Part shown: positions 1,383 to 64,000 of the stretch, one piece after another | Numbering within the stretch: the first letter of the stretch is position 1 | Layout: each line of letters starts with the position of its first letter | Origin: Candidatus Saganbacteria bacterium | GTDB taxonomy: Bacteria; Margulisbacteria; WOR-1; XYC2-FULL-46-14; XYC2-FULL-37-10 | Assembly: GCA_016223245.1 (NCBI GenBank) | Contig: JACRPL010000006.1 | Coordinates: 21,417-85,416 of the forward strand | DNA: 64,000 bases | Direction: 5' to 3' | The notes under the pieces: generated by a model | The model's input: only the letters and a program-made list of their open reading frames with translations | The model's database searches: none | What the model was told of the DNA's origin: nothing | Position numbers and translations under genes: made by a program

Positions 1383-1456
1383 TACATATATATAATCGTG
1401 GCAAGATGCGGCAAACTTGCATTAAAAACAGGAAGTAATGCGGGCTTGTGGCGAGT

Positions 1457-2688: not shown

Positions 2689-2698
2689 AATTCTCCTC

Positions 2699-2935
2699 TT
2701 AGATTACCGTATTTGTTTTCGGCGCAATTGCACCGGGTGTTTGTACAGGCATTGTCGGTACTTCAGCTATATTTTTTTTTGGCAATAATGCTCCTGCTAC
2801 ACCGTTTAGGCTAACTTCCAGCAAACCTCTTGCGCCTGTTAATGCGAGCCTGCCGGATGGGACCCCGCGTGATTTAGCCGAAGCCGCGTCACTAAAACCT
2901 CTCCCCATTCCTCCGTTCGGATCGATCTCTGCCAT
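2699..2935 (-). CDS. Small Ala/Gly/Pro-rich protein, 78 aa, beginning MAEIDPNGG...VPSGRL..., paralogous to the N-terminus of the 342-aa protein.
   Basis: The start is an internal ATG at 2933-2935 of the listed 138-aa ORF, chosen because a GGAGG sequence lies 10 nt upstream (reverse complement of 2946-2950). The first 60 codons of the listed ORF overlap PBP1A and were discarded. There is a 10-nt gap to the next gene. Confidence 0.5.
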   Translation of the reverse strand: MAEIDPNGGMGRGFSDAASAKSRGVPSGRLALTGARGLLEVSLNGVAGALLPKKNIAEVPTMPVQTPGAIAPKTNTVI

Positions 2936-3011
2936 GATAATTTCGCCTCCACAATGTATATCGCATCCAATCGCAATAAACTTGCATGCAATCATGATAT
3001 AATTATACACA

Positions 3012-12399: not shown

Positions 12400-12409
12400 G
12401 TTCTTCTCC

Positions 12410-48152: not shown

Positions 48153-49213
48153 AATATAGCCTCCAATGCTTTTATGGCTTCAATTTTCGCAAGATCGTTA
48201 ACTTGTATCATCTTATGGTTTTCTTGCATCATTACAAGCGACAATCCTTCGCCTGTTCTTTTCTTATCCTTTTTCATGGCAGAGACTATTGCATTATGGT
48301 CGATCTTTAAGTCATTTAGATCGATCTTGACCACTGGAAGTAGAGCATTTTTAGATAAATCCTCCGATAACGTCATTGACATTAGGCCTCGATCGATAGC
48401 TACATGATTAGCTAACATTATACCAAGAACAACAGCTTGCCCATGAGGTATCTTATAATCTGTTGCGGTTTCCAATGCATGTCCGAAACAATGCCCAAAG
48501 TTCAGGATGTTCCTGCGGCCTTTATCAAATTCATCAGTTTCAATATATATTTTTTTTATTAATAGAGCCTCTCTGGTCATTTTACCGATTGTTATCAAAT
48601 CGCGTTCAAGTAACGGGCTCATTTTGGATTTGAGTTCAATTGTTTTACCGGTACCGCCGATCAAGAAGAGTTTAACCAACTCCCCGATCCCGCTTAAATA
48701 ATCGATATCAGTTAGTGTTGCCAAAAATTCAGGAATTATATATATCTCGGATGGGGGGTAAAAAGTTCCCAAAAGATTTTTGAATCCTTTATAGTTCAAT
48801 GAAGTTTTTGCCCCAATACAACTGTCGCATTGAGATAGCATGGTTGTAGGGAAAAAGATCCAATTAATTCCCCGATATATGATTGAAGCCGCAAATCCGG
48901 CAATATCCTGAAGAATACCCCCGCCTATAACAGCTAAAACAGTGTTTTTCTTTGAAGAGCGTTCAATTAAACTATCGACCAATATTTGAACGCCCTCAAA
49001 TGTTTTTTTATCTTCGCCTACTTCAAAAATAACCGCTTTTGAAGCGTCGATCTTTGAAAGCATGCTTTTATTATGTCGTTCCCAAACTTTTTTATCTATT
49101 ATGAAAAATGCTTCGTTCAATTCTGATATCTTGTCCAGTAGGTCTTTTGGAAATAAAAAATCTACGGTATAATCATTTAGTTTTGACTTGATCGAGAGAC
49201 CATCTATTGGCAT
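48149..49213 (-). CDS. 3-dehydroquinate synthase-like (sugar-phosphate cyclase superfamily) enzyme.
   Basis: GGG..D NAD motif (VIGGGILQD) and metal-binding His motifs (...NFGHCFGHALE...HGQAV). 354 aa. Confidence 0.8.
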   Translation of the reverse strand: MPIDGLSIKSKLNDYTVDFLFPKDLLDKISELNEAFFIIDKKVWERHNKSMLSKIDASKAVIFEVGEDKKTFEGVQILVDSLIERSSKKNTVLAVIGGGILQDIAGFAASIIYRGINWIFFPTTMLSQCDSCIGAKTSLNYKGFKNLLGTFYPPSEIYIIPEFLATLTDIDYLSGIGELVKLFLIGGTGKTIELKSKMSPLLERDLITIGKMTREALLIKKIYIETDEFDKGRRNILNFGHCFGHALETATDYKIPHGQAVVLGIMLANHVAIDRGLMSMTLSEDLSKNALLPVVKIDLNDLKIDHNAIVSAMKKDKKRTGEGLSLVMMQENHKMIQVNDLAKIEAIKALEAIL

Positions 49214-49863
49214 GTATAACCGCCGTCAATAATGATATTTTGGCCTGTAATATAAGTGTTTTTGTCCGAACAAAGAAAACAGACCAAATGTGCGATTTCA
49301 TCGATATTTGCTAAGCGACCAAGAGGGATCAGCTTTTTTATTGAAGCTATCTGTTCTTCGGAATTGTTTTGCCTGGTTAACGAAGTTTCAACAAATCCCG
49401 GAGATACGGAATTTACTAAAATACCCCTTTCCCCAAGTTCGATCGCAAGCGTTCTTGTCAATGCATTAAGTCCAGCCTTTGTCGCGGCATATACCCCTCT
49501 TCCGGGCTTTGAAACCTCACTCCAAATTGAACTAATATTAACGATGCGTCCTTTTCCCATCATAGGCACGATGCCCCTGATCAATCGTATTGGTGATGAC
49601 AAGTTTATTTTTATAGTCTCGTCGAGATCCTTATCGTCAATTTCAGAAATATTGCCGATTGGATTTATTCCCGCATTATTTACAAGAACATCAATTGATC
49701 CGGTTAATAAGGATATATAGTTAGCAACCGAAGAATTATCCGCAAGGTCCAATTCTTTTCGAGTCGGCGCAAGCACTGCAAAACCTTCTTTTTTTAAAAG
49801 ATCGGCAATTGCTTTGCCAATACCTCGCGACCCTCCGGTTACAAGCGCTTTTTTTCCGGTCAT
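49204..49863 (-). CDS. Short-chain dehydrogenase/reductase.
   Basis: TGGSRGIGKAIA glycine motif, NNAG, and a Y...K catalytic motif (YAATKAG). Confidence 0.8.
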   Translation of the reverse strand: MTGKKALVTGGSRGIGKAIADLLKKEGFAVLAPTRKELDLADNSSVANYISLLTGSIDVLVNNAGINPIGNISEIDDKDLDETIKINLSSPIRLIRGIVPMMGKGRIVNISSIWSEVSKPGRGVYAATKAGLNALTRTLAIELGERGILVNSVSPGFVETSLTRQNNSEEQIASIKKLIPLGRLANIDEIAHLVCFLCSDKNTYITGQNIIIDGGYTCQ

Positions 49864-50678
49864 TCGATGCTTCCTCCCGCGTCTTTAATTAATTTGTCGT
49901 ACCTGGATTGAAGCATTTCGATCCTAATTTTATCCTCTTCAAAGATCATGCCATAGAAATCGCGTTTGTTTTTCAACCACATAAGCTCGAAACCCACAGC
50001 CTTAAGTATCCCCTTATCCGCATTATCGTTTAAGGCTTCAGGGCATTTAAATATGACTTTGCGTGTTTCATATCTATCGAGCGCTCCGGTAGGTAGCTTT
50101 TTGAAAAATGGAAGTGACGCAGCTGAAACGCCTCCGCCAATAACACATTCAAGTTTTTTTTGTTTTGATTTAAGAAGCAATTCTTTTGCAACGTCGAATA
50201 TTTTATCTGAATTAATATCTTCACGGGTTAAACCCATAGACCCAGTCATATCAACTCGTCCTAATACTATGCCATCAAGTTCGGAAATGTTTGGAAGCTT
50301 GAGCATTTCGTCAAAATTATTGGAGCCTGTAATTGTTTCAATATTAATTAATAAAGAAACCCCATCTCTTTCATCTTTTGGGAATGCCAATTTTGCAGCT
50401 TGCAAATATTTCTTTAATGCATATTGCGATTCGATCATTGGAGCGACTATGCGAGCCACTCCTATCGATCTTGAGTCATACATATCTTTTATCGCTTCGC
50501 ACCCGCCTATTTTAATCGTAAGATCAAGGCCTGCTTTTGATATAACTTCTTTTAAACGCAAAGCTTCTTCGAGCCTGGTACCCTCTGCCTCAAATTCAGC
50601 CTTTATTCCAATGACGTGATGGTTTTCCTTAAGGTCCAAAAGGACCGAAACCATTTTTTTCTCTAAATTATTCATCAT
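49860..50678 (-). CDS. HpcH/HpaI-family aldolase or citrate-lyase-beta-like protein.
   Basis: TIM-barrel pyruvate-aldolase-like motifs (...GIVLGRVDMTGSMG...). 272 aa. Confidence 0.7.
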   Translation of the reverse strand: MMNNLEKKMVSVLLDLKENHHVIGIKAEFEAEGTRLEEALRLKEVISKAGLDLTIKIGGCEAIKDMYDSRSIGVARIVAPMIESQYALKKYLQAAKLAFPKDERDGVSLLINIETITGSNNFDEMLKLPNISELDGIVLGRVDMTGSMGLTREDINSDKIFDVAKELLLKSKQKKLECVIGGGVSAASLPFFKKLPTGALDRYETRKVIFKCPEALNDNADKGILKAVGFELMWLKNKRDFYGMIFEEDKIRIEMLQSRYDKLIKDAGGSIE

Positions 50679-52488
50679 TATCCTCCAATTCTTTTATCAA
50701 CATATTGCTTTTGAACTCTTCTCTTGGAAGGAACGGGAACATATCTTCCAATGGTTTTGATCTCATTTTACCGTTCTTTAGTTTAACAGAAGATAGCTTT
50801 GGTTCAAACCTGTAAGTAGGATCAAGAATGACCTCGATAACAGCTGGTCCGCGCTTATTAAGGATCGCCGCAATGTCATTCTTAAGTGATTTTTGATTTT
50901 TTATGGTAACAGCACTTATCCCGTAAGCTTTTGCAATTTTCGTAATATCCGGAAAAGTAACTCCGGTTTCCGGACAACAAGCAACTCGCCTCCCTTCAAA
51001 GAAAGAATCTTGAGTTTGTTTTATCGAGCAATAGCCCTGATTATTAAGAACAAATATCTTTATCGGAAGCTTAAGGCCTGCAACTGTTTGCAATTCCTGC
51101 ATATTCATTTGCAGACTGCCGTCGCCTGCAATACAGATAACCTCTTTTTTGTTTGCCGCAATACAAGCACCGATAGCAGCCGGCAAGTCGTATCCCATCG
51201 AGGCGCATCCCGAATTCCAGAACATCCTTTGATTTGGTTTAACAATTCCTGCTTGAAAAACCGATACACATGCCGTGCCATTTCCCGCCACAACAATTGC
51301 ATTAGATCTAAGCTGATTTGTTAGAACATCGATAAAATAATATGGGTTGATTGATTTCTTAAGTTTTTTATATTCCGGTAGTACAGTAGGATATTTCTTC
51401 TTGCGCTCTGTACACCAGATTAGCCATTCTTTGGGGATCGATATGTTTTTCCAGGCAATCGTTGTGTATAATGCCTCTAAGAAATATTTAGCATCGCAAT
51501 TTATTGCAATATCAGGTTTCAACGTAGGTTTATTAAGTTCTGTTGGATCAATATCTATTACTATCTTTTTTGCTTCTCTTGCGACAGTTTCCCAGTTATA
51601 ACTAACCTGCCTGATATTGTTCCTGGTCCCGATATATAATACCAGATCGGAGTTTTGGAGTGCAAAGTTTCCGGCTCTTGTTCCCACTGTTCCAATTCTT
51701 CCGATAAACAATGGATGATCCGAAGGAATTTGATCAAATCCATTAAAAGTTGAAAGGACAGGAATTCTTAGCTTTTCGATGACCTTTTTGAATATTTTTA
51801 GTGAGCCTGACAATCTTATCCCATGTCCTGCGACTATTACTGGTCTTTTAGCGTTTTTCAGCAATTCAATTGTTTTTGCAATCTTAGAATTTATTTCATC
51901 ATTGGCAAACTTGATCTCGTCTTCTTTTTTATCGTAGCCTGTCAAATTGTTCTCATCAACCATTGAAGACTGGACGTCAAGCGGCACATCTAACCAAACA
52001 GGCCCAGGACGGCCTGACATCGCCAAATAGAGAGCTTTTTCTAAATAGTACCTGATCTTATATGGATCTTCGACATATACTGCATATTTTGTAACCGGTT
52101 TTACAATGTCTACGATATTGATCTCCTGATCTCCTAATTGCCTTAATTTCTGATCAGGATAAGATTCAATTGTCGTTTCCCTCTTAACCTGCCCCGAAAT
52201 ATATATTACTGGAATTGAATCAAGCCATTGGCCTATCACGCCGGTCATGGTATTTGTTCCACCAGGTCCAGATGTTATGATAACGCAGCCGATCTTTCCG
52301 GAGACCCTAAAATATCCTTCTGCTCCGATCGCGGATGCTTGCTCATGATGGTTGCAAATATATCTGATTTTCTTGCTTTTGCCCACGGAATCATTTAAAT
52401 GCATAGCTCCGCCGCCTGAGATCATAAAAACGTCTTTTATCCCGTATTCTTCAAGCTTTTTTACTATGTAATCCGAAACTTTGATCAT
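50668..52488 (-). CDS. Thiamine-diphosphate-dependent enzyme of the acetolactate-synthase-large-subunit family (YerE-like).
   Basis: Three-domain ALS architecture. ThDP motif GDGSLQMNMQELQTV...NN. 606 aa. Confidence 0.85.
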   Translation of the reverse strand: MIKVSDYIVKKLEEYGIKDVFMISGGGAMHLNDSVGKSKKIRYICNHHEQASAIGAEGYFRVSGKIGCVIITSGPGGTNTMTGVIGQWLDSIPVIYISGQVKRETTIESYPDQKLRQLGDQEINIVDIVKPVTKYAVYVEDPYKIRYYLEKALYLAMSGRPGPVWLDVPLDVQSSMVDENNLTGYDKKEDEIKFANDEINSKIAKTIELLKNAKRPVIVAGHGIRLSGSLKIFKKVIEKLRIPVLSTFNGFDQIPSDHPLFIGRIGTVGTRAGNFALQNSDLVLYIGTRNNIRQVSYNWETVAREAKKIVIDIDPTELNKPTLKPDIAINCDAKYFLEALYTTIAWKNISIPKEWLIWCTERKKKYPTVLPEYKKLKKSINPYYFIDVLTNQLRSNAIVVAGNGTACVSVFQAGIVKPNQRMFWNSGCASMGYDLPAAIGACIAANKKEVICIAGDGSLQMNMQELQTVAGLKLPIKIFVLNNQGYCSIKQTQDSFFEGRRVACCPETGVTFPDITKIAKAYGISAVTIKNQKSLKNDIAAILNKRGPAVIEVILDPTYRFEPKLSSVKLKNGKMRSKPLEDMFPFLPREEFKSNMLIKELEDNDE

Positions 52489-53237
52489 ATTGATATAGTT
52501 ATCCCGTCTGTGGCGGCTATTGTATTCTTAAAGATATTTCTTACTTGTTTCTGTGCAGTTTTTCTTTCTTTAAGCGTTTGATATACTTCGGCGTCAAAAT
52601 GTGTAAGAACCAACTTCTTTGATTTTGAAACCTTTGCAATTTCTGCTGCTGTCGCGGGAGTTAAGTGCGGCCATTCGGAGTGGTCCATACCAAGCTTAAA
52701 TGCACATTCGGAGATGATAAGGTCTGATCTTTGAGCCAGCCTGATCGCATTATCGCAATACCCAGTATCGGTGATGTAACTTATTACTTTGCCCGAAAAA
52801 TTAAGCCTGTATCCATATGACGGGACAACATGCAATAATATCTTGTAGTCCTCTAAAAACGATATTTCTTTTGATCGTTTCTTTAAATCAACAATTTTAA
52901 CTTTTGTTTTAAGCAGATCAAGTGGCGCGGTATATGGCTTATTGATAAATTCATGAGCGGTCTTAACATAATTACCAGGCAGACAAAGCGAAATCCCCTG
53001 CTTAAAATTAAATTTTGCCAAAACATGAAGACCTATAACATGATCGAGATGGAAGTGGCTTATAAAAAGAAAGATCGGTTTTTTTGATCTAATATATTTA
53101 TCCAGTTTATAAATACCATTGCCAGCATCCAAAATAACGTATTCGTTAGGCGTTTCAATTAAAAGGCTTACGGTATTACCGCAATCGGTGTCATACCAAC
53201 CGTTCGTTCCCAGAAATGTGATCTTTATCTTTTGCAT
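52485..53237 (-). CDS. MBL-fold metallo-hydrolase.
   Basis: HFHLDHVIGL metal-binding motif. 250 aa. Confidence 0.75.
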   Translation of the reverse strand: MQKIKITFLGTNGWYDTDCGNTVSLLIETPNEYVILDAGNGIYKLDKYIRSKKPIFLFISHFHLDHVIGLHVLAKFNFKQGISLCLPGNYVKTAHEFINKPYTAPLDLLKTKVKIVDLKKRSKEISFLEDYKILLHVVPSYGYRLNFSGKVISYITDTGYCDNAIRLAQRSDLIISECAFKLGMDHSEWPHLTPATAAEIAKVSKSKKLVLTHFDAEVYQTLKERKTAQKQVRNIFKNTIAATDGITISI

Positions 53238-53248
53238 ATTAATCCCTT

Positions 53249-54127
53249 CTATTTATCAAAAAGCAATAGTTCTTTATCGATCTTACTCTTATTTTCAACA
53301 TACCAATCATATAATTTACGGATAGATTCTTCAATAGGCGTGAGCTTGAGGCCTTCAATCTCTGTTTTTAATCGTGAATTGTCGCCGCTGTATTCGGTCT
53401 CTTGACCTTCCTGTTGAATTTTTATCGGAAGGTCTTTTTTCGAGACTTTAAGCACGATCTTTGCAATTTCTTTTAGTTCGATAGATCTATCGGGTGCAAT
53501 ATTGTATGCTTTGTGCTTATTTGTACAAACAATGAAATGCTCAATAACTAAACATAAGTCATCAATACTAATATAATCGAATTTTCTGTTTTGCTTTATT
53601 GTGATAGGAAGATCGAATATTGTCTTGCATATCGCATTTGAGATGAATCTAATCGCATAATCCTCATATTTCCCAAAAACTCCAAAAGGCCTAAGTTCGA
53701 CAATGTTATCGGTTTTTTCTAAATACTTTGCGCAGAGATATTTTGAAAAGCCACCTTCATCATCTGGAACATTTACATCGAAATACTCTTCTTTCATTTT
53801 CGGCAGATAATGATCTATGCCATATACCAGGCCGGAGCTCAAAAAAATCATTTTCTTGAACTTTTTTTCGTTTCTTGCTATGTTGAAGAACATTCTTGTA
53901 TTTTGCTCTAATTGTTTTGAGGGATCTTTCGCGTTTCTATGTCCGGGGCGGACGGCGGAATGGACCATGATATCAATATTATTATTCTTAAAATAATTTT
54001 CTACAGCTATCGAATCAATTAAGTCTAGCTCAGCGCGTGTGGGTGATAAAATATCGTATTTTTCACCAAAATATTCGATCAAGTTCTTTCCCACAAAACC
54101 CGATCCGCCTGTAATAAGCAGTTTCAT
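53249..54127 (-). CDS. NAD(P)-dependent sugar-nucleotide reductase or epimerase, of the CDP-abequose/paratose synthase size class.
   Basis: MKLLITGGSGFVGKNL and a Y..AK catalytic motif. 292 aa. Immediately downstream of rfbH, as in enterobacterial ddh clusters. Confidence 0.75.
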   Translation of the reverse strand: MKLLITGGSGFVGKNLIEYFGEKYDILSPTRAELDLIDSIAVENYFKNNNIDIMVHSAVRPGHRNAKDPSKQLEQNTRMFFNIARNEKKFKKMIFLSSGLVYGIDHYLPKMKEEYFDVNVPDDEGGFSKYLCAKYLEKTDNIVELRPFGVFGKYEDYAIRFISNAICKTIFDLPITIKQNRKFDYISIDDLCLVIEHFIVCTNKHKAYNIAPDRSIELKEIAKIVLKVSKKDLPIKIQQEGQETEYSGDNSRLKTEIEGLKLTPIEESIRKLYDWYVENKSKIDKELLLFDK

Positions 54128-55467
54128 CGTTTTACTGCTTTTCTGATCTCATCCAACATGAAATCGATCATTTCTTTTGTCATTCCAGGATATACTCCAA
54201 CCCAAAAAGTATTATTCATGATAAGATCGGTATTTTTCAGATCGCCGACCACTCGATATCCTTTTTTATTCTTGCGCATTTCATCAAAACACGGATGCTT
54301 GGTCATATTCCCGGCAAAAAGCATCCTGGTTTGAATCCCTTTTGACTCGAGATGATGGACTATCTCATTTCTCGTAATACATGCGTCATCTTTTACGGTC
54401 AAAAGAAAACCAAACCAGCTGGGGAGAGAATTCCTTTCGGCTTTGGGAAGGATGAAAATATCATCAAGCTTTGACAGTCCATCACGAAGCATTTTCCAAT
54501 TTGCCCGCCGTGCTTTAATGAACGAGGGAAGTTTTTCCAACTGCGCGCATCCTATTGCCGCTTGCATATCAGTAACTTTTAGATTGTATCCGAAATGTGA
54601 ATATATATATTTATGGTCATATCCATACGGAAGTTCGCCTAATTGCCATTTGAAACGCTTTTTACAGGAATTATCTTGTCCGGATGGGCACCAGCAGTCC
54701 CTGCCCCAATCGCGGAATGAATTGACGATCTTATTTAGCATGGGATCATTTGTGTAAACTGCTCCGCCTTCGCCCATAGTTATTTGGTGCGCCGGGAAAA
54801 AGCTTGAAGTCGCTATATCCCCGAAAGTCCCGGTATAAGCCCATTTGCCATGAAGCTTATATTTAGAACCCAAAGAATCGCAATTATCTTCGATCGACCA
54901 AATTTTATGTTTGGAACAAAATTCTTTAACTTTCTGGATATTAAAAGGATTTCCAAGCGTATGGGCTATAATTACTGCTTTCGTTTTTTTCGACAACGCC
55001 GCTTCAAGCTGTACGCAATCAATGTTGTAGCTTGGGAGAGCGACATCAACAAATACAGGAACGGCGCCATATTGGATGATCGGTGAGATCGTTGTCGGAA
55101 ATCCTGCTGCTACCGTAATTACTTCATCGCCTTTCTTGATCCTTCTATCCCCGAGCTTTGGCGATGTGAGCGCCATAAAGGCCAATAAATTTGCGGATGA
55201 CCCCGAATTAACAAGAGAACAATATTTTACCCCGATAAATTTTGCGAAGCCTTGTTCGAATTTTTCCGCATATCTTCCCGTCGTTAGCCAAAAATCCAAA
55301 GATGAATCTATCAGATTTGAGATCTCTTTTTCATCATAAACTCGCCCGGCGTAAGGAATTTTGTCTCCAGCGGAATATTTGTGTTTCTTTTTCGATCTGT
55401 AAAAATCAATAGCCGCATTAATTGTTTTTTTTCTTAATTCCGCTTCATTTCCCATAATATCCCTCAA
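54124..55467 (-). CDS. rfbH: CDP-6-deoxy-D-xylo-4-hexulose 3-dehydrase (RfbH/DdhC, E1).
   Basis: DegT/DnrJ/EryC1 fold, at 447 aa with the RfbH-type size and N-terminal extension. Preceded by rfbF and rfbG. Confidence 0.85.
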   Translation of the reverse strand: MRDIMGNEAELRKKTINAAIDFYRSKKKHKYSAGDKIPYAGRVYDEKEISNLIDSSLDFWLTTGRYAEKFEQGFAKFIGVKYCSLVNSGSSANLLAFMALTSPKLGDRRIKKGDEVITVAAGFPTTISPIIQYGAVPVFVDVALPSYNIDCVQLEAALSKKTKAVIIAHTLGNPFNIQKVKEFCSKHKIWSIEDNCDSLGSKYKLHGKWAYTGTFGDIATSSFFPAHQITMGEGGAVYTNDPMLNKIVNSFRDWGRDCWCPSGQDNSCKKRFKWQLGELPYGYDHKYIYSHFGYNLKVTDMQAAIGCAQLEKLPSFIKARRANWKMLRDGLSKLDDIFILPKAERNSLPSWFGFLLTVKDDACITRNEIVHHLESKGIQTRMLFAGNMTKHPCFDEMRKNKKGYRVVGDLKNTDLIMNNTFWVGVYPGMTKEMIDFMLDEIRKAVKR

Positions 55468-56509
55468 TTTGCTTTAAACAAACCTCTCTGATATCTTTTC
55501 CGGCTGCATATGCTTTTGTGAAATCAATGACCATATCAAGCGCTTTTTCAAGGCCTAATTTTGGCCTCCATTTGAGCCTTGATCTGGATTTTGAGGCGTC
55601 AAGCATAAGATAATGCGCTTCATGGGGATGCTTGCCTTTTGCCATTTCATAACAAGCTCCATTTCCCCACTTTTTGCATAATTCTTTTGTAAGCCAAATA
55701 ACCGGCTTCGCGTCTTTTTTTTTGGGTCCAAAATTCCAAGCTTCGGCAAATTTGCCGGGTTTTTCGTACAATTTTCGCGCCAGCAGCAAATATCCGGTCA
55801 AAGGTTCCAATACATGCTGCCATGGCCTTACAGCTTTCGGGTTTCTTATAAGTATTTTCTCGCTTTTTGAAATTGCCCTAATAAAATCCGGAACAAGCCT
55901 GTCGCTTGCCCAATCTCCTCCGCCTATCACATTTCCGGCCCTTGCTGTTGCAATATTTAATCCGAAGGAATCCCTGTAAGACGCAGTAACTATCTCTGAA
56001 CAAGCTTTACTGCTTGAATATGGATCATATCCGCCTAGCGGGTCATTTTCTCTAAATCCCCTTGACCCTTGCCCCGATTTCCGCATCGGGGCTTGCCCCT
56101 TGTTCTCATATACTTTATCGGTCGTAATATTTATTGCTGCCTTAACGCTATTGCATGCTCTGACCGCCTCTAATAAATTCACAGTACCAAAAATATTTAT
56201 TTCATAAGTTTCGACCGGGATAACGTAAGAATCTCGGACTATGGGCTGTGCCGCCATATGGATGACTATTTCCGGTTGAGCCTTTTTAATTTCAGCTTTT
56301 ATCCGATCTTTATCCCTGATATCGGCAATGATAGATCTTACGGATTTATCTAAATTGCAAAGATCGTACAAGCATGGTTCAGTCGACGGATTTAAAGCGT
56401 AGCCCGTAATATTTGCGCCGAAATGATCTAACATCAGGCAAAGCCATGAGCCCTTAAAACCGGTATGACCTGTTATGAAGACTCTCTTATCTTTCCAAAA
56501 ATTTGTCAT
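55445..56509 (-). CDS. rfbG: CDP-glucose 4,6-dehydratase.
   Basis: MTNFWKDKRVFITGHTGFKGSWL and a YSSSKA catalytic motif. 354 aa. Confidence 0.9.
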   Translation of the reverse strand: MTNFWKDKRVFITGHTGFKGSWLCLMLDHFGANITGYALNPSTEPCLYDLCNLDKSVRSIIADIRDKDRIKAEIKKAQPEIVIHMAAQPIVRDSYVIPVETYEINIFGTVNLLEAVRACNSVKAAINITTDKVYENKGQAPMRKSGQGSRGFRENDPLGGYDPYSSSKACSEIVTASYRDSFGLNIATARAGNVIGGGDWASDRLVPDFIRAISKSEKILIRNPKAVRPWQHVLEPLTGYLLLARKLYEKPGKFAEAWNFGPKKKDAKPVIWLTKELCKKWGNGACYEMAKGKHPHEAHYLMLDASKSRSRLKWRPKLGLEKALDMVIDFTKAYAAGKDIREVCLKQIEGYYGK

Positions 56510-56515
56510 TTGACA

Positions 56516-57295
56516 TTAACCCCACACTTTCCAGGGAGCTTTGCCCGAATCCCATAAACTTTCGAGTATTTTCTTTTCCCTCAATGTGTCCATCGGCTGC
56601 CAGAAACCCGTATGTTTATAAGACATAAGCTGTCCATCTTTTGTGATATTCCGAACAGTATCCTCCTCAAAAGGTATGATCTCGTCCTTTATATAATCCA
56701 GGACTTTGGGTTCCAGGACAAAAAATCCGCCATTGATCCACGAAGTATTGCCTTCCGCTTTCTCCTGGAATTTGTAAACCCGATTATCGTCTTTTATGTT
56801 CAATGCTCCAAACCGCCCAATAGGCCTTACGGCGGTCACGGTTGCAAGCTTGCCGTGGGTTTTATGGAAATTTACCAATGCTTTGATATCAATATCCCCA
56901 ACGCCATCTCCATAGGTAAGCATAAAAGCCTTATTGTCCAAATATTTTCCGGCCCTTTTTATCCTTCCCGCGGTCGAAGTCTCGATCCCGGTATCAACAA
57001 GCGTCACTCGCCATGGTTCTGCCGTATTAGTTTGGATAATTGTTTTTTGGGAGCCTGAACTGAAATCGAAAGTAACGTCGGATTCATGCAAAAAGTAATT
57101 GGCAAAATATTCTTTTATCTGATAGCCCTTGTAACCCAAACATACGACGAAATCGTTGAACCCAAAATGGGAATAAAGCTTCATGATATGCCAAAGGATA
57201 GGCTTGTCGCCTATTTCAAGCATTGGTTTTGGCTTCAATGACGATTCTTCGCCAATTCTTGTCCCTAAACCTCCCGCAAGGATCATTACCTTCAT
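56516..57295 (-). CDS. rfbF: Glucose-1-phosphate cytidylyltransferase.
   Basis: MKVMILAGGLGTRIGEESSLKPKPMLEIGDKPILWHIM... is near-canonical RfbF. 259 aa. Confidence 0.9.
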   Translation of the reverse strand: MKVMILAGGLGTRIGEESSLKPKPMLEIGDKPILWHIMKLYSHFGFNDFVVCLGYKGYQIKEYFANYFLHESDVTFDFSSGSQKTIIQTNTAEPWRVTLVDTGIETSTAGRIKRAGKYLDNKAFMLTYGDGVGDIDIKALVNFHKTHGKLATVTAVRPIGRFGALNIKDDNRVYKFQEKAEGNTSWINGGFFVLEPKVLDYIKDEIIPFEEDTVRNITKDGQLMSYKHTGFWQPMDTLREKKILESLWDSGKAPWKVWG

Positions 57296-57319: not shown

Positions 57320-58816
57320 TTATCCGATTTTTTCATACAAAGATACTGTTATCCTATATGAGCCCTTCTTGTGCCTATTTATCGGCAATTTTGAAACTAA
57401 AGTGCTTTCGTAGGGGACGAATTTCCGGATCATTTTCAGCCGATAATTATTACCTAGGCTAAGTTTTATGCTTTCAATATATCCTTTCGGGAAAACCCGC
57501 TCATCGACAATATTTGTTATGAGCCAGATCCTTTTGGCTATCAATTCGGAAGGCTTTAGGAGCGCATGTCCATTTACAAGCGAAACCATTTCGTAATCAC
57601 CCGGAAGATAATACTTTAAGATATTATATGTAATATGCCTATTTGTTGCGGCAATTAGATCGCCTTTTAAATGTTCTTTTTCTATTATTTGAGAGACTTC
57701 CCTCCATGGCTCGATCTGGTTTGAATTATGGTATTCATTAAATGTGAAATAATTGGCGATCGAAATACTTTGAAATAAAAGGATCAGCCCAAATAAAATA
57801 TAGAAAATGACCGGATTTTTTATACGCGACAGGGAAATCCCAAGCAAGGCAATATAAAATGGCAATGTAAAGATGAGGTATTTTGGCATTGTCGACGGTA
57901 AAATAGATGCTATAACTATAGGCATTACAAGAAATATCATCATGTACACGTTTTTTTCATCTTTCGATCCAATGAATTGAAATATCAACAAGGATCCAAT
58001 AATTATTAACGATGGAATTACAATAATGTTCCAAGGTGCGACCGTCTCACCCAAGGCAAGCACAAAGAAGATCAATGGCAATTTTAATGTTGGGGGGAAC
58101 GTGGAAAACGCCATATCCGGGGTCCCGGAAATAACGGCCATGGCCGCATGAATGATGATCTTAAAATAAAGAGGGAAAATTAGAATTGAAACAATAAGCA
58201 AAAAGCCAAGCGCTAAACGAGAGTTGGCATCTTTTTTTCTTAGGTAAATGATCGCGCAAAGTACAAATTGGCTAAATATCATCAATGCCGAATAAATTTG
58301 GGTCAAACCTAACAGCAAAGTGCATAAAATGAAAACAATTGAGGCTTTAATTGTCACTTGCTTGTACAACAACCTAAAGAGCGACCAGGCCGATAAAATA
58401 GATAACAATAGCATTAGCCCATACAACCTAATTTCGTGAGAATGCATAATGGCCAATGGTGAAAAAGCTAAAAGGCCGGCACAAACTAAGGCGGCCCTAT
58501 CGCTTATTGTATCTTTTACGAAAAGGTACATAGCTATCATAGAAAATATGCCAATGATAACTGAAAGCATGCGCAACCCGTATTCAGTAGGTCCGAAAAC
58601 TTTTATCCATAAAAACAATATCGCAAAATATGCCGGAAGATGGGATTCGATTGCCAATGCCTTGATATCAAAATGGCCGGATACGGAATAAATACTATGC
58701 GCTTCATCACCCCAAAGGCTTCGGAATATCGGGTCATAGATCCTGATAAAAGAGCCCAATAACAGGATAAATAAGAAGATCATGAATATTCTGTTTGCTT
58801 TAATCGCCGAAAACAT
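57320..58816 (-). CDS. GT-C fold membrane glycosyltransferase (GT39/ArnT/PMT-like).
   Basis: Polytopic, with a DE motif in the first periplasmic loop (SLWGDEAHS). 498 aa. Confidence 0.6.
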   Translation of the reverse strand: MFSAIKANRIFMIFLFILLLGSFIRIYDPIFRSLWGDEAHSIYSVSGHFDIKALAIESHLPAYFAILFLWIKVFGPTEYGLRMLSVIIGIFSMIAMYLFVKDTISDRAALVCAGLLAFSPLAIMHSHEIRLYGLMLLLSILSAWSLFRLLYKQVTIKASIVFILCTLLLGLTQIYSALMIFSQFVLCAIIYLRKKDANSRLALGFLLIVSILIFPLYFKIIIHAAMAVISGTPDMAFSTFPPTLKLPLIFFVLALGETVAPWNIIVIPSLIIIGSLLIFQFIGSKDEKNVYMMIFLVMPIVIASILPSTMPKYLIFTLPFYIALLGISLSRIKNPVIFYILFGLILLFQSISIANYFTFNEYHNSNQIEPWREVSQIIEKEHLKGDLIAATNRHITYNILKYYLPGDYEMVSLVNGHALLKPSELIAKRIWLITNIVDERVFPKGYIESIKLSLGNNYRLKMIRKFVPYESTLVSKLPINRHKKGSYRITVSLYEKIG

Positions 58817-60071
58817 TATATTTTAACTCCTTCAATGTTTTAATGCCTTCTTCCAAGACCTTCCGGTCGCCATAGATTTGCTCGGATGACTTGATCGACA
58901 TCCTATCGCCTTTCAACCTAAGCTCTTTTTCGATCGGCGCGAATTTCTTTATTTTATAGATCCCCAGTGCTATCCCGCTTGCCCAATTTGAAATAATGAC
59001 CAAAGTGAATATTAATATTGCTGGCTTTAGATAATGGTCGATTTTTTTTGTTCTAATTAAATATAAGAGAAAAAGCCAAATAAAGCCCAAGAAATAGAAC
59101 ATTTGGAACATATGGTATCTCGATAATAACGCGAACTTGATCCCAAAATTAACCCTCCCAATAGATGTAATGAAAGCCGTCAAAATAGAATAGAACATCA
59201 TTGAATACGGTATGATCGTTTCTTTATGGCCATATTTATACGTTTTGAACACTAATACAGCACCGATAACAAAGAAAATAAAGCCCCAAATTCCAGCGAT
59301 CAGAAGCAATATCGGCAATAAATGACCTACTTTGTAAGTAGGAATAAAATTAGCCCCGAAATAAACGAAAAAGTATTCGATGATTTTAATAGTATTTGTG
59401 AGCGGTAAGGCCGTATTGTTTTTGGTCAGGACATTCTCGGAAAAATAGAGCATATATGTTAATATGCACGCTGAAAAGAACATAAGCATGTTTTGAATGT
59501 TTTTCTTTGGAGAAAATATTATGCCGGGAAGACATGCGATCCAGCCCAAAAGGCCGGTCAAAAAAGAGAAGGAAGCTATGACCAATGAAATTATCATGAT
59601 CAAGAGCGACCTCAAATTTGATCCTGTATTGTACGAATTGATAATAGCTAAAAAAACAAAAACGAGGCATAGGAGGTATGCCGAAAAACTGAATAATATA
59701 TTTTCATGATGTATCGGGGAGTATTGGGCCAATAACGCAAAAAAGAAAAGTATTCTCGCACTTTTATTGCTAATATTCTTTGAAAATGAATTATATATAA
59801 GAAGCATTAACATTGAAAACAATAGAAGAGATGCAAAAGTCTCGTATTTTAAATTCCACTGGCTTATATGGGCCAAAAAGACGGTTATCAAATTTGGGAA
59901 AAATACCCGGTGCTCACTTACCCTTGCCCAAAGATTTTGAATATTTGGTTGTTTTATTATATGGATAAAAGACCATTGGTCGGCGATCGGAATATTAGGC
60001 GTGAAAGTCAGGACATAGATCGATAATAATATAAAAACAATAAAAAATATAGTTTTTTGTATAGAGCTCAT
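58800..60071 (-). CDS. Polytopic membrane protein, possibly a second GT-C-type transferase or a polymerase.
   Basis: 423 aa with 10 or more hydrophobic segments. No soluble domain. Confidence 0.5.
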   Translation of the reverse strand: MSSIQKTIFFIVFILLSIYVLTFTPNIPIADQWSFIHIIKQPNIQNLWARVSEHRVFFPNLITVFLAHISQWNLKYETFASLLLFSMLMLLIYNSFSKNISNKSARILFFFALLAQYSPIHHENILFSFSAYLLCLVFVFLAIINSYNTGSNLRSLLIMIISLVIASFSFLTGLLGWIACLPGIIFSPKKNIQNMLMFFSACILTYMLYFSENVLTKNNTALPLTNTIKIIEYFFVYFGANFIPTYKVGHLLPILLLIAGIWGFIFFVIGAVLVFKTYKYGHKETIIPYSMMFYSILTAFITSIGRVNFGIKFALLSRYHMFQMFYFLGFIWLFLLYLIRTKKIDHYLKPAILIFTLVIISNWASGIALGIYKIKKFAPIEKELRLKGDRMSIKSSEQIYGDRKVLEEGIKTLKELKYNVFGD

Positions 60072-60940
60072 TTCATTGAACCCTTCCCAAGCTTACCGGA
60101 TGCAAAATCATATATTGCAAGCATTGTAGTTCTAATACTGCCGAATTGCCTATTTTTTAAAGACTCTATCAGCGAATAGATCGGGAAAATTACCAGATTT
60201 AGCACCAACGGTATTAATTGACCTGTCTTTTTGAAGAACAAAAGATTATTTCTCGTGCGAAAATAAGTGTAAAAGGGAGACAATTTCCCCCCCATTGATG
60301 CCGCAAATTTGTGATAGATCACCGCTTTCGGCACAATCAACAATTGATACCCCGCCCTTCTTGCCCGAATGCTAATATCCACATCCTCATAATTATTGAA
60401 ATAATCGGCATCGAGCATGCCTATTTTCCCCAATACTTCTCTTTTGATAAGCATTGAACAACCGGAGATCCATTCTGTTTCGCCGGATCCCGAAAGGTCG
60501 TGCGCCGGTTTTCTTATGATAGGTAAAAACTTTCCGCCAGAAAACCAAACCTTTGTTTTATCGGAATATTGCATTATCCTCGGGGATAATATGCCGGCGG
60601 AACGATTTTCTTGTCCTGCCGAAATAAGATGCGACAGAAAATTAGGTTCAACAGTTGTGTCATTGTTTAACAGAAGAACATAGTCGGCGCCATGGGATAA
60701 CGCAAGCCTTATCCCAACGTTGCTCCCTTCGGCGAAACCAAGATTTTTGCCGTTTTCAATCAAAGTTATTCCCGGAAATTCATTTTTAATATGAATTTGC
60801 GAGCTATCTTTGGATCCGTTATCGGCTAAAATGATCTCAAAGTTGCCATAATCTGTGTTCATTAGCGAAGCGAGACATTCCTTTGTATCAAAATATTGGT
60901 TCCAATTGAGTATAACTATCGAAACTTTAGGTTTATTCAT
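60068..60940 (-). CDS. GT2 glycosyltransferase.
   Basis: KVSIVILNWNQYFDTKECLASL...ILADNGSKD and a DxD motif. The start was set at the internal MNKPKVS to avoid overlap. Confidence 0.8.
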   Translation of the reverse strand: MNKPKVSIVILNWNQYFDTKECLASLMNTDYGNFEIILADNGSKDSSQIHIKNEFPGITLIENGKNLGFAEGSNVGIRLALSHGADYVLLLNNDTTVEPNFLSHLISAGQENRSAGILSPRIMQYSDKTKVWFSGGKFLPIIRKPAHDLSGSGETEWISGCSMLIKREVLGKIGMLDADYFNNYEDVDISIRARRAGYQLLIVPKAVIYHKFAASMGGKLSPFYTYFRTRNNLLFFKKTGQLIPLVLNLVIFPIYSLIESLKNRQFGSIRTTMLAIYDFASGKLGKGSMK

Positions 60941-61857
60941 TTTTTTTCTTTCCCAAGTAATTTGCGGATCCCCTCCACTAATCCAATTTTTGGCTTCCAT
61001 CCAGGCAGCCTCTTTCCTTTATTCCAAGGGATCATTACCTCTCTATCCCGGTATGTTCGCCCACCCCACATGACATTGGCATTTCGACCGGACAATTTGG
61101 AATAAATATCAACAATTCTTCTAAGCTCAAGGGGTTTGCCCGACGAAACAGAAAAGTTCTCAATTCTCTTGCCCTTTGATCTAGCAATCCTTGAAGCCGC
61201 CTTAAGATAAGCGTCGATCACATCGTCTATATATACAAGGTCGATCAATTGGCGGCCAGGGGACATTGTGATCGACCGTCCGGATATTGAAGAATCATGG
61301 AGAAGTTTAAATAATTTTGCCCGCTTATCTTCCGGCCCATAAGTGTCGAAAAGCTTTAAAGTAATGACTTTGAGCTCTGTTGAGCTTGCATAATACTCAA
61401 TAATATCTTCAAACGCCTGTTTGGTCGCGGCATAAAGATTGACGGGGCTGTAGTGTTTGTTTTGAAAGTGCTGCCATGAGGTACCCGTATTTACCAAGTA
61501 ATTGCATTGGTTGACTCTCATGGCCTCGAGCAACTGTGTCCCAAATAGAACATTTGATCCGATCAATGGATTAATATCTGTTGATGAATGTTCTGATATG
61601 AACAGGGAAGCGAGATGAAAAACGATATCAGGCTTTGCCCGCCTTAATATCGAGAGTAATCCTTCTGTCGAACCGTCATGTTCAAAGATCTTGACGATCG
61701 GATATTTCTTGGCCAGCAATAACTTATCTGCTCCGGGCCTTACAACCACGCTTATCGTTATCTTTTTTTGCAGCAAGCGTTCCAACAAATGAGAACCGAT
61801 AAACCCTGCAGCTCCGGTAATGAGTATATTATTAAATTTGGAATTAGATCTTTTCAT
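60937..61857 (-). CDS. NAD-dependent epimerase or 4-ketoreductase (extended SDR).
   Basis: ILITGAAGFIGSHLLERL and a YAATKQAFE catalytic motif. The start was set at the internal MKRSNSKF. Confidence 0.75.
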   Translation of the reverse strand: MKRSNSKFNNILITGAAGFIGSHLLERLLQKKITISVVVRPGADKLLLAKKYPIVKIFEHDGSTEGLLSILRRAKPDIVFHLASLFISEHSSTDINPLIGSNVLFGTQLLEAMRVNQCNYLVNTGTSWQHFQNKHYSPVNLYAATKQAFEDIIEYYASSTELKVITLKLFDTYGPEDKRAKLFKLLHDSSISGRSITMSPGRQLIDLVYIDDVIDAYLKAASRIARSKGKRIENFSVSSGKPLELRRIVDIYSKLSGRNANVMWGGRTYRDREVMIPWNKGKRLPGWKPKIGLVEGIRKLLGKEKK

Positions 61858-62422
61858 ATATAAATGGGCTCTTATAATCCTTGAGGTTTTGCAGCTTAGC
61901 ATCGCGCTCGGACACGATCGGTTTATTGTTTGGCCAGGGGACCCCCGCGCTGGACCAATGTATACCCCCATCATTTGCGGGTGAATGCTTAAAACTTGTC
62001 TTATAGAGCAGGATTGCCTCGCTGCTTAAAACATAAAACCCATGGGCCACTCCAGCGGGGAGGTAGAGCAAATGGCTTACTTTTGCGCTAAGTTCAAAAG
62101 TTTCATGCTGGCCGAATGTTTCCGATCCGATCCTTAGGTCAACGATCGCATCAAATACCTCGCCGAACAAACAACAAACGATCTTGGAATAAGCCGCCGG
62201 CGGTGTCTGGAAATGCATTCCCCTTAAAACGCCTTTGCTTGATTTTGAATAAAAATCCTCCGCAAAACATGTTGGCAGCTTATGCGTTAGAAACTGTTCT
62301 TCCTCGAAGAACTTGACCAAACTTCCGCGCGCGTCGAGATGTATTATTGGTTCAATTTCATAACATCCCGCAATTTTAGTTTTTTTTATTTTCATTGGTT
62401 TCTCCTCCATATGTATCGCCAA
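61844..62422 (-). CDS. RmlC-like cupin sugar-nucleotide 3,5(5)-epimerase.
   Basis: dTDP-4-dehydrorhamnose-3,5-epimerase fold motifs (...KGVLRGMHFQ...YSKIV.C..G...D...D.R..S.TFG...). 192 aa. Confidence 0.75.
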   Translation of the reverse strand: MAIHMEEKPMKIKKTKIAGCYEIEPIIHLDARGSLVKFFEEEQFLTHKLPTCFAEDFYSKSSKGVLRGMHFQTPPAAYSKIVCCLFGEVFDAIVDLRIGSETFGQHETFELSAKVSHLLYLPAGVAHGFYVLSSEAILLYKTSFKHSPANDGGIHWSSAGVPWPNNKPIVSERDAKLQNLKDYKSPFIYEKI

Positions 62423-63744
62423 TGCGCAATTGTTTCGCGGAATTTATTTGCGATCTTTTTTAAGAGCCTTTTCTTTTTAATGGACCTTATCCTGGAATCA
62501 AGATACAAATAATCCACTCCTTTGATCTTTTGAGATCTGGGAGAACGGTCAACTTCATGATCTTTGATCAAGCTTAGCCCGTGTTCCTTGCAATATAAAA
62601 AAAGCTCGCTTCCGGGATGCGGGGTAAAATAGGACGGCGAATCGTAGTCGGGATCGATCTTTTCGATAATTGAGATCGTTTGTTCCACCTCTTCTTTTGT
62701 CTCGGTCGGCAGGCCGAACATATAATTGGCAAATATTTCAACGCCATTTTTCCTGCAAATTTCGGCCGCGCGCAAATTTTGTTCGACCGTTGTCCCTTTT
62801 TTGATAAAATCCAAGATCCTCTGGCTGCCGCTCTCAAAACCGATTATAAGGCATGCCAGTCCCGATTTTTTCATCTCATAGATCAGCTCTTCGTTGTTGC
62901 TTATTATATCTGCGCGGCTCTGGCAAACAAATTTCTTTTTGATGCCCAATCTATTATACTCCTCACAAAACCTCATGACCCATTTTTTGTCATAGGTAAA
63001 TAGGTCGTCGTGGACCATAAAGCTGTTGAATTTATACCGGCTATACAGATGATCCAATTCGTCAATGACATTTTCAACGCTTCTCATCCTGACCCTGTCG
63101 CCAAATACACGCCGTTCGGCCGGCTGGCAAAAAGTGCAATTAAACGGGCATCCCCGCCCGACATTGAGCGTAACGAAAGGTGCTTTTAAAGACTTGATGA
63201 ACGGGTGGAACAGTTCGGCGCTTACATCAAACAGGTCCCTATCGATCCACGACAGCGTGTCAAGCGAGGTTGCCTCGCCCTGATAGACCCTGTCAGGCAT
63301 TCCGCCGCTTTTAATTATATCCAATATTCTAGAAAATATTACTTCCCCTTCACCAACAACGATTATATCGATATCATTGTTGCTTTTCATCTGTTCAAGC
63401 ATTATCGTCGGGTGGACCCCTCCAACAACAGTTATTGCCTTTGGATTGGTCTGCTTTGTTATTTTTATCGCTTCGAGCGCCGGTAAAAGATCGATGCTCA
63501 TGATCGAGAAACCGACGACTTCAGAGCCTTGTTCCTTCAATATTTCGGAATAATGTTCCCAATCTCTCAATTTACGAAGATCAATGCCTTTAACATCGTA
63601 ACCTTTTTGTTTTGCATAACTGCTGATGGAACAAAGACCGTGATTTATATAATTAACAACGGGATCGCTTCCACGGCCATAGCTATTAAATCCCCGCATT
63701 CCGATGCCCGGATAAACAAGTGTGGCTTTTAATGAGCTATTCAT
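62392..63744 (-). CDS. B12-binding radical SAM protein (class B rSAM, candidate C-methyltransferase or rearrangement enzyme).
   Basis: N-terminal cobalamin-binding Rossmann domain (...VVGFSIMS...ITVVGGVHPT) followed by the CxxxCxxC motif GRGCPFNCTFC. Confidence 0.85.
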   Translation of the reverse strand: MNSSLKATLVYPGIGMRGFNSYGRGSDPVVNYINHGLCSISSYAKQKGYDVKGIDLRKLRDWEHYSEILKEQGSEVVGFSIMSIDLLPALEAIKITKQTNPKAITVVGGVHPTIMLEQMKSNNDIDIIVVGEGEVIFSRILDIIKSGGMPDRVYQGEATSLDTLSWIDRDLFDVSAELFHPFIKSLKAPFVTLNVGRGCPFNCTFCQPAERRVFGDRVRMRSVENVIDELDHLYSRYKFNSFMVHDDLFTYDKKWVMRFCEEYNRLGIKKKFVCQSRADIISNNEELIYEMKKSGLACLIIGFESGSQRILDFIKKGTTVEQNLRAAEICRKNGVEIFANYMFGLPTETKEEVEQTISIIEKIDPDYDSPSYFTPHPGSELFLYCKEHGLSLIKDHEVDRSPRSQKIKGVDYLYLDSRIRSIKKKRLLKKIANKFRETIAHWRYIWRRNQ

Positions 63745-64000
63745 AATCTATCTCAATTTCCCTATTTAATAGTTCATTCCTGAAATTCCTGAATTTTTCA
63801 AAATAAAAGGTTTTTCTTTTCCGGCTCAAGCCGAAACAAAAGAAAATAAATAAATAGAATATAAGCGCCAAAAAAGCTTTTAGCGCGATCATAAACGGAT
63901 CACTGCCGATCCCGGCGTATTCCATGATGAAAATGGCGCCGGCGGTAATAGCAGAGAGACAAGCCGGCAAGATAATTGTCGAAACAATATATGCGCTAAA
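63737..64000 (-). CDS. Partial membrane protein; the gene continues beyond the window.
   Basis: A hydrophobic ORF, probably in frame through the window end. Confidence 0.35.
   Translation of the reverse strand, partial: FSAYIVSTIILPACLSAITAGAIFIMEYAGIGSDPFMIALKAFLALIFYLFIFFCFGLSRKRKTFYFEKFRNFRNELLNREIEIDYE

Follow-up and report, generated by a model that had tools for sequence, protein, structure and literature searches.

A B12-binding radical SAM family of envelope-glycan gene neighbourhoods and its setting beside an AscE/AscF-type enzyme pair in Candidatus Saganbacteria

Introduction

In a 64-kb stretch of a Candidatus Saganbacteria genome (contig JACRPL010000006.1; the whole stretch is referred to below as the window), three genes raise the question of what a B12-binding radical S-adenosylmethionine (SAM) enzyme may be doing in a sugar operon, next to an RmlC-like epimerase and a short-chain dehydrogenase/reductase (SDR). 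According to both the list of open reading frames (ORFs) and the gene calls, these three co-directional, overlapping, minus-strand genes exactly fill positions 60937-63744. The original prediction took them to form a coupled set at the head of an operon, in which the radical SAM enzyme (rSAM) would C-methylate or rearrange the nucleotide sugar handled by its two neighbours.

Cobalamin-dependent radical SAM enzymes carry out chemically hard C-H functionalisations. To our knowledge, the characterised members that modify sugars all come from antibiotic or hopanoid pathways, and none acts at the level of primary envelope glycans or nucleoside diphosphate (NDP) sugars. Results of our analysis indicate that the three genes are real, the Pfam E-values being far beyond chance. 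Their position at an operon head proved to be an artefact of the window edge, since a second contig (L001), which is 99.98% identical to the window over 11.6 kb and extends it upstream, carries a Wzx-type flippase gene and further glycan genes ahead of them. The RmlC-like/SDR pair is ordinary, and the rSAM adds a new, uncharacterised protein to a known class of enzymes in an uncharted context.

Domain organisation of the radical SAM protein

The rSAM gene (62392..63744, minus strand) encodes a protein of 450 aa from an uncharacterised, glycan-associated family. A Candidatus Saganbacteria protein at NCBI has the same sequence (100% identity). Residues 34-140 (63325..63645, minus strand) correspond to an N-terminal B12-binding domain of Rossmann type, matched by PF02310 with 59.8 bits (cutoff 32.1) over model positions 14-120 of 121, and residues 194-358 (62671..63165, minus strand) match the radical SAM core domain PF04055 with 82.7 bits (E 4.5e-23). 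The CxxxCxxC motif of the [4Fe-4S] cluster (C199, C203, and C206) lies inside GRGCPFNCTFCQPAE (63127..63150, minus strand) in the translation, and its cysteines are invariant in 30 of the 30 homologues that were aligned. The mean column identity of this alignment is 60%, and the motifs MS[IV]D, GGxHP, and GEGE of the B12 domain are conserved in it. The earlier description of the protein as a class-B-type rSAM, with B12 domain and CxxxCxxC motif, in a nucleotide-sugar or glycan operon is supported.

The lack of a DxHxxG motif had been proposed as a sign that the protein is not of class B. This motif is indeed absent from the rSAM and from the family members of the 30-sequence alignment, in which the matching loop reads [NS]-H35-G36-L37, but its absence does not refute class B. 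It is not diagnostic, because the cobalamin is base-off and lacks a His ligand in all structures of B12-binding rSAMs solved, DxHxxG being the motif of MetH and the mutases (PMC12931638). A Rossmann-like N-terminal domain alone is no proof of cobalamin binding, as the examples of AprD4 and ArsL demonstrate (PMC12931638). The domain of the rSAM nevertheless looks like a genuine B12 domain, because a profile of the family picks up the B12 domains of TokK (4e-10), TsrM (8e-8), OxsB, and 4Q37, because the sequence match to AprD4 is limited to the rSAM core (residues 153-386) and leaves the N-terminal domain unmatched, and because PF02310 is matched over its full length with 60-72 bits in five family members vs. 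20 bits, over a part of the model, in an AprD4-like control. In the AlphaFold2 model of the rSAM (predicted local distance difference test score of 92.7), residues 6-145 form five parallel strands with flanking helices. We infer from these sequence features that the rSAM binds cobalamin.

Four additional cysteines of the rSAM, C260, C274, C330, and C385 (window ~62590-62967), are invariant or nearly invariant. They possibly serve an auxiliary cluster or provide a catalytic thiol.

Genomic neighbourhoods of the family

Among the candidates scored, 3056 proteins are homologous to the rSAM at E<=1e-10, and the best 120 of them all score above 450 bits, with 44-76% identity. The homologues come from Omnitrophota, Nitrospirota, Chloroflexota, Schekmanbacteria, Armatimonadota, and other phyla. 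At least 577 relatives were confirmed in GTDB species genomes among the 600 pattern matches listed. The family is about 50% identical across phyla and has no characterised member; in the literature searched, we found nothing relevant on a characterised B12-binding rSAM in O-antigen, polysaccharide, or deoxythymidine diphosphate (dTDP) sugar pathways.

The association of this family with envelope-glycan and NDP-6-deoxyhexose metabolism is robust. It emerged from a survey of 88 family loci, in which ORFs of all frames were scored against a protein panel and the flanking same-strand ORFs were scanned in bulk with Pfam. In these Pfam scans, the gene directly upstream encodes a nucleotidyltransferase at 26 of 75 loci, another rSAM at 10, and a Wzx-like flippase at six, while the gene directly downstream encodes an extended SDR at 24 of 68 loci, a family 2 glycosyltransferase (GT2) at 11, and another rSAM at seven. 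In Chloroflexota, the genes on either side encode a true RmlA of the long form (476 bits, cutoff 320) and a true RmlB (455 bits, cutoff 365): at the 64 loci from this phylum, RmlA is encoded upstream in 28 and RmlB downstream in 25, with both present in 16 and either in 37. No RmlC- or RmlD-like gene lies within ±10 kb at any of the 37 Chloroflexota loci that have RmlA or RmlB. Outside Chloroflexota, GT2 is the commonest neighbour, adjacent at 8 of 20 loci, as exemplified by the order Wzm-Wzt-methyltransferase-GT2-rSAM-GT2 in Nitrospirota and Schekmanbacteria.

About half of the surveyed loci have no recognisable sugar gene directly adjacent to the rSAM gene, some of them carry tandem rSAM paralogues or SPASM-domain rSAMs, and ArsR-type regulators are encoded upstream at 7 of 75 loci. 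These features would suit an enzyme that is co-transcribed with glycan genes and whose substrate is not a sugar but, for instance, a lipid carrier, a protein, or a small metabolite. We give this explanation a slim chance: nucleotidyltransferases, SDRs, GT2 enzymes, and flippases are the top neighbour families on the two sides, far above random neighbours, and the rSAM gene of the window is translationally coupled to glycan genes on both of its sides.

Certain family loci have features of their own. In the Chloroflexota loci L060, L048, L053, L071, and L077, B12-binding rSAM genes stand in tandem, with as many as five paralogues in a row. A cluster rich in glycosyltransferase (GT) genes, L089 (1613-11073), encodes three rSAMs, namely a family member, an AprD4-like protein (279.6 bits, cutoff 500) that follows an HpnA-like SDR, and a SPASM-domain protein. 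In the Nitrospira loci L047 (11230-15510), L083, and L056, there are subfamily-A-like rSAMs with the motif HDDLFFINH and, directly downstream, a giant ORF of ~1400 aa.

The RmlC-like/SDR pair

The RmlC-like cupin (61844..62395, minus strand; 183 aa) matches PF00908 (dTDP_sugar_isom) with 173.9 bits (E 3e-51) and scores 144.8 against TIGR01221, just under the cutoff of RmlC equivalog level (155.75). Its best match in the Protein Data Bank (PDB), and thus its closest solved relative, is the epimerase WbcA (5BUV; 141 bits, E 3.5e-40), which is specific for cytidine diphosphate (CDP) sugars. The catalytic residues of RmlC are kept, His61 (RGMHFQ), Lys71 (SKIV), and Tyr131 (LLYK) having aligned counterparts in Salmonella RmlC (1dzr); WbcA differs here in having a Cys in place of the catalytic Tyr. 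The protein is a probable CDP-4-keto-(3,)6-deoxyhexose epimerase of AscE/WbcA type, while the choice between 3-, 5-, and 3,5-epimerisation is not one that can be read from a sequence (PMC9095892).

The SDR (60937..61857, minus strand; 306 aa, here SDR306) is of the extended type and matches PF01370 with 120.8 bits and no equivalog. It has a GxxGxxG motif at residue 15 and the Y142xxxK146 motif, and its homologues of 52-58% identity occur in many phyla. A function as 4,6-dehydratase was considered and discarded, as the Asp-Glu pair is missing and TGTSWQ stands in place of the STDEVYG-type motif of RmlB. The missing Asp-Glu pair, together with the low score against TIGR01181 (66.6 bits vs. a cutoff of 365), indicates an SDR of reductase or epimerase type, probably a CDP-4-keto-3,6-dideoxyhexose 4-reductase similar to AscF.

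Orthologues of both proteins end a conserved cassette that is shared by Moorella naiadis, Phormidium sp. LEGE 05292, and Geomobilimonas luticola (loci L094-L096), three cultured bacteria unrelated to one another. The order of genes in these loci is rfbF (cytidylyltransferase), rfbG (4,6-dehydratase), rfbH (DegT/RfbH-like), the RmlC-like gene, and the SDR gene, followed by a flippase gene and/or a GT2 gene. The identity of the cassette proteins to those of the window is 51-63% for RfbF, 30-59% for RfbG, 56-66% for RfbH, 49-53% for the RmlC-like protein, and 52-54% for SDR306. No rSAM is encoded within ±9 kb in any of the three loci, as judged by tblastn. Because orthologous cassettes carry the pair without an rSAM, the pair belongs to the CDP-3,6-dideoxyhexose pathway and not to the rSAM. 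The window has it in the same operon as rfbFGH but 4-7 kb upstream of these genes, with three membrane or GT genes in between. The assignment of the pair as AscE/AscF-type, which had been proposed earlier, is therefore well supported by the sequences, with the cassettes and with WbcA as the closest structure.

The gene order of the cassettes is the same as that of Yersinia pseudotuberculosis O:5a, where ddhABC-ascE-ascF, the genes for CDP-ascarylose, are followed by wzx and a GT gene. In the Yersinia module ddhABC-ascE-ascF-wzx-GT, it is the genes after ddhC that decide which dideoxyhexose is made (PMC5399914). The window, likened to this system by gene order, differs from it in that it has no ddhD/E3, that the pair stands apart from rfbFGH, and that an rSAM gene precedes it. 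No reductase of the E3/DdhD/AscD type is encoded in the window at 38600-64000, in L001 at 1-5483, or in the cassettes of L094-L096. The possibility that the rSAM substitutes for E3 was rejected, E3 being equally absent from the orthologous cassettes that lack an rSAM. E3-less CDP-dideoxyhexose cassettes are common outside Enterobacterales.

The coupling of the rSAM to the RmlC-like/SDR pair, which the original prediction put forward, was not supported. The pair exists without the rSAM elsewhere, and among the 88 loci an RmlC-like gene lies within 3 kb of a family rSAM gene in a single case, the contig of the window itself. All three genes recur together on one contig of 3.2 kb, where the three proteins are 76%, 71%, and 68% identical to those of the window, and a relative of 63% identity is found in the order Wzx-rSAM-SDR without RmlC. 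The coupling of the rSAM with an RmlC-like epimerase is thus a local arrangement of this Saganbacteria lineage. SDR306 was also considered as the dedicated partner of the rSAM, in view of the adjacency of SDR and rSAM genes in L001, L005, L033, and L089. This was rejected because the SDRs that adjoin family rSAMs do not form one orthologous group (24-48% identity; RmlB, HpnA-like, and SDR306 types) and because the orthologues of SDR306 reside in rSAM-free cassettes.

Predicted reaction and alternatives

Radical C-methylation of an unactivated sugar carbon is, by analogy, the most likely candidate for the rSAM reaction, although we put it at slightly less than an even chance. It is favoured because C-methyl transfer dominates among the functions known for the B12-binding rSAM class, and because this class includes the sugar C-methylating enzymes GenK, GenD1, Fms7, and MoeK5 (PMC12931638, PMC9204698). 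The comparison of these four with the rSAM is one of enzyme class and of the chemistry of sugar C-H methylation, and they differ in acting on glycosides of aminoglycoside or moenomycin secondary metabolism and not in envelope-glycan operons. The first sequence match of the rSAM in PDB is the methylase MgmA/QCMT (9CCB; E 6.7e-18 with a single sequence, 2.5e-20 with a profile). This glutamine C-methyltransferase of methyl-coenzyme M reductase shares with the rSAM the size of ~450 aa, the N-terminal Rossmann B12 domain, and the TIM-barrel core with CxxxCxxC. The two proteins are only ~22% identical, and the substrate of MgmA/QCMT is a protein, whereas the context of the rSAM is glycan biosynthesis.

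A wider reading, which we offer tentatively and well short of an even chance, is that the rSAM represents a widespread B12-binding family that tailors NDP-4-keto-6-deoxyhexoses or lipid-linked 6-deoxyhexoses of cell envelopes. In Saganbacteria, a 3,6-dideoxyhexose of ascarylose type would be turned by it into a new sugar, either C-methylated or rearranged, and in Chloroflexota it would serve a dTDP-sugar route via rmlA-rSAM-rmlB that is independent of RmlC and RmlD. The hosts would be anaerobic, mostly uncultivated members of Chloroflexota, Nitrospirota, Omnitrophota, Desulfobacterota, and Saganbacteria, with the rSAM described here as the founding example; this part is equally tentative.

Several observations weigh against the main explanation, sugar tailoring by radical C-methylation. 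The rSAM reaches no NCBIfam family cutoff. The two hidden Markov models (HMMs) that it matches best, HpnJ (TIGR03471; 155.4 bits, cutoff 577.6) and BchE (TIGR02026; 153.1 bits, cutoff 481.35), describe non-methylases, and the third is MJ_1487 (140 bits, cutoff 251). The named methylase models compared, a set that did not include GenK, Fom3, and MoeK5, scored lower: HpnR 110.9 (cutoff 650), MgmA 105.8 (360), the PhpK family 88.7 (600), the RiPP (ribosomally synthesised and post-translationally modified peptide) C-methyltransferase 88.3 (282), and KedN5 68.7 (700). According to reviews, methylating and non-methylating B12-binding rSAMs are inseparable by sequence (PMC12931638). The best match of the whole chain in structure is AprD4, a sugar 1,2-diol dehydratase that does not use cobalamin. 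Genes of the cob, cbi, and btu types for cobalamin synthesis or uptake are missing from the 64-kb window, and the literature searched gave nothing usable on cobalamin in Saganbacteria. As for the substrate stage, the sugar-methylating B12-binding rSAMs that we know of use glycosides, and none of them uses an NDP-sugar. As for the genomic context, the adjacency of rSAM and RmlC genes is nearly unique, the link to the dideoxyhexose branch is one of operon position only, and the rmlA-rSAM-rmlB arrangement of Chloroflexota may go back to one ancestral event and not to many independent ones.

The scores of HpnJ and BchE point to another possibility, namely a non-methylating, cobalamin-assisted rearrangement or oxidation of the kind carried out by HpnJ, BchE, or OxsB, for instance a ring contraction or carbocyclisation on a lipid-linked glycan after the action of a GT2. 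HpnJ and BchE are listed as non-methylases within one large cluster of the sequence similarity network (SSN) (PMC12931638, PMC9204698). HpnJ also provides a precedent, since it acts on the glucosamine of bacteriohopanetetrol after the GT2 enzyme HpnI (PMC9204698). This sequence of steps recalls the frequent GT2 neighbours of the family outside Chloroflexota and the GT2-rSAM-GT2 order of Nitrospirota and Schekmanbacteria, and in L033 and L089 an HpnA-like SDR is the partner. The scores, however, amount to less than about 30% of the respective family cutoffs and indicate no membership, and the methylases Fom3 and MoeK5 share that SSN neighbourhood, MoeK5 co-clustering with HpnJ and Fom3 in a stringent SSN (PMC9204698). 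Moreover, no other gene of the operon predicts a carbocyclic or ring-contracted sugar, and the locus encodes no hopanoid or bacteriochlorophyll genes, its context consisting of glycan genes only. We regard this alternative as unlikely.

The structural match to AprD4 would in turn suit a cobalamin-free radical 1,2-diol dehydratase that deoxygenates a sugar, with the adjacent SDR as a reductase, as in the AprD4/AprD3 system. In the Foldseek comparison of the AlphaFold2 model, AprD4 with bound paromamine (6fd2) is the best match (E 6e-21, template modelling score of 0.73, 456 aligned columns), followed by MgmA, TsrM, OxsB, TokK, and CysS. AprD4, the apramycin 1,2-diol dehydratase, acts on a sugar together with a partner reductase; it is second among the PDB sequence matches of the rSAM. 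The high frequency of extended SDR genes downstream of the family rSAMs and the lack of E3/DdhD in the cluster also fit such a function. Yet AprD4 binds no cobalamin (PMC12931638), and the rSAM scores 67 bits against the AprD4 model (NF033070; cutoff 500). The core-only sequence match and the difference between the rSAM family and the AprD4-like control on PF02310 speak against it as well. In Chloroflexota, the partner SDR is RmlB, a bona fide 4,6-dehydratase and not a reductase, and in the window the deoxygenation of C3 would already be provided by RfbH, E3-less cassettes being found also without an rSAM. A function of AprD4 type is thus rather improbable.

To return to tailoring by methylation, the substrate of the pair would be CDP-4-keto-3,6-dideoxy-D-glucose, formed by RfbF, RfbG, and RfbH. 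The RmlC-like cupin would epimerise this sugar beside its 4-keto group by means of His61 and Tyr131, and SDR306 would use NAD(P)H to reduce C4, yielding a CDP-dideoxyhexose that resembles ascarylose and could then be used by the adjacent GT2 and Wzx. The rSAM would tailor the 6-deoxy or dideoxy sugar, either as an NDP-4-keto-6-deoxyhexose or after its transfer to a lipid-linked glycan. The rmlA-rSAM-rmlB order favours the NDP-sugar stage, while the GT2 neighbourhoods and the use of glycosides by known sugar-methylating B12-binding rSAMs favour the lipid-linked one. In the proposed reaction, the reduced [4Fe-4S] cluster would cleave SAM to a 5'-deoxyadenosyl radical, which would abstract a hydrogen from a C-H bond of the sugar; methylcobalamin would then donate its methyl group to the sugar radical, and a second SAM would re-methylate the resulting cob(I)alamin.

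Organisation of the glycan gene cluster

The sequence of the window and of L001 indicates that the region is an internal stretch of a Wzx/Wzy-type surface-glycan operon of about 30 kb. The 256 nt between the rSAM start and the window end belong to the 3' end of another minus-strand gene, present in the window as an open frame at 63737..64000 (minus strand) that is cut by the window edge. On L001, it is a full Wzx-type flippase gene of 515 aa (PF01943/PF13440), the stop of which overlaps the rSAM start by 8 nt. Further upstream on L001, genes for a GT2, a UDP-galactopyranose mutase, another GT2, and a haloacid dehalogenase (HAD) hydrolase are located on the same strand. The rSAM stop overlaps the ATG of the RmlC-like gene in the sequence ATGA. 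For the RmlC-like protein, the gene calls on L001 make the ATG at 62395 (183 aa) the most likely start, with the TTG at 62422 less likely, and for the SDR they favour 61857 (306 aa), not 61974. According to the gene calls, neighbouring genes from Wzx through PMT_2 overlap by 4-17 nt, which indicates one tight transcription unit.

Downstream of the pair, the first gene encodes a GT2 (60068..60940, minus strand; PF00535, 75.9 bits, and gene calls) and overlaps the SDR stop by 4 nt. It is followed by genes for a membrane protein, a PMT_2-type GT-C, and the three enzymes of the dideoxyhexose pathway, namely rfbF (56516-57295; TIGR02623, 408 bits, cutoff 300), rfbG (55445-56509; TIGR02622, 458 bits, cutoff 278), and rfbH/E1 (54124-55467; NF011936, 735.8 bits, cutoff 423), all on the minus strand. 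Next come genes encoding an SDR, a metallo-beta-lactamase (MBL)-fold protein, a thiamine diphosphate (ThDP) enzyme, an aldolase-like protein, a FabG-like SDR, and an AroB-like cyclase, and then those of a PgfS-like GT2, a DUF218 protein, an SDR, RmlD, and a GMD-like protein. The series ends with genes for a GT1, a Wzy_C-TPR protein, and, at ~38.6 kb, a Bac_transf phosphoglycosyltransferase.

Several of these genes deserve separate mention. The PMT_2-type GT-C gene (57320-58816, minus strand) adjoins that of the polytopic membrane protein (58800-60071, minus strand; 423 aa), which has no Pfam or NCBIfam match and is kept as a 425-aa protein in the related cluster L005; the two may form a novel polymerase or GT-C pair. 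The MBL-fold protein (52485-53237, minus strand; 250 aa; RNase Z/Apyc1-like) is encoded next to RfbH, as is its counterpart in L005 (12813-13574). The sub-cluster at 48149-52488 (minus strand) encodes an AroB-related sugar-phosphate cyclase (TIGR04425, 398.9 bits, cutoff 400), the FabG-like SDR, an HpcH/HpaI-aldolase-like protein of 272 aa, and a ThDP enzyme similar to acetolactate synthase, which hints at a second branch of an unusual kind, for a sugar or a cyclitol, next to a YerE-like ThDP step. The genes at 43325-45171 (minus strand) code for an orthologue of RmlD (301 bits against a cutoff of 224) and for a dehydratase similar to GMD (386 bits, cutoff 415), and neither rmlA nor rmlB is present in the glycan cluster of the window. 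Alternatively to SDR306, this RmlD might act as the reductase that works with the RmlC-like epimerase.

A gene that borders the glycan cluster on the opposite strand (36157-38607, plus strand) encodes a protein of 816 aa with Glucodextranase_B, Big_13, and CHU_C domains. CHU_C is a C-terminal sorting domain of the type IX secretion system type and is unexpected for a Saganbacteria genome. The remaining part of the window, from about 1 to 36 kb, contains mainly housekeeping genes and some ORFs without an assigned function. Among these, large ORFs of up to 1057 aa without a Pfam match at E<=1e-5 are located at 18788-21961 (plus strand) and, on the minus strand, at 13461-15281, 26699-28258, 11299-13057, and 1457-2485.

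Conclusions

The largest sequence groups of B12-binding rSAMs are still unexplored (PMC12931638). For the family described here, the repeated position between rmlA and rmlB or among GT2 genes yields a concrete set of candidate substrates, namely dTDP-4-keto-6-deoxyglucose, CDP-4-keto-3,6-dideoxyglucose, or their products. The rSAM of Candidatus Saganbacteria is an enzyme-discovery lead and no surprise in kind. Its reaction, once solved, would add a new tailoring step to bacterial glycan biosynthesis and would account for unknown envelope sugars of candidate phyla.

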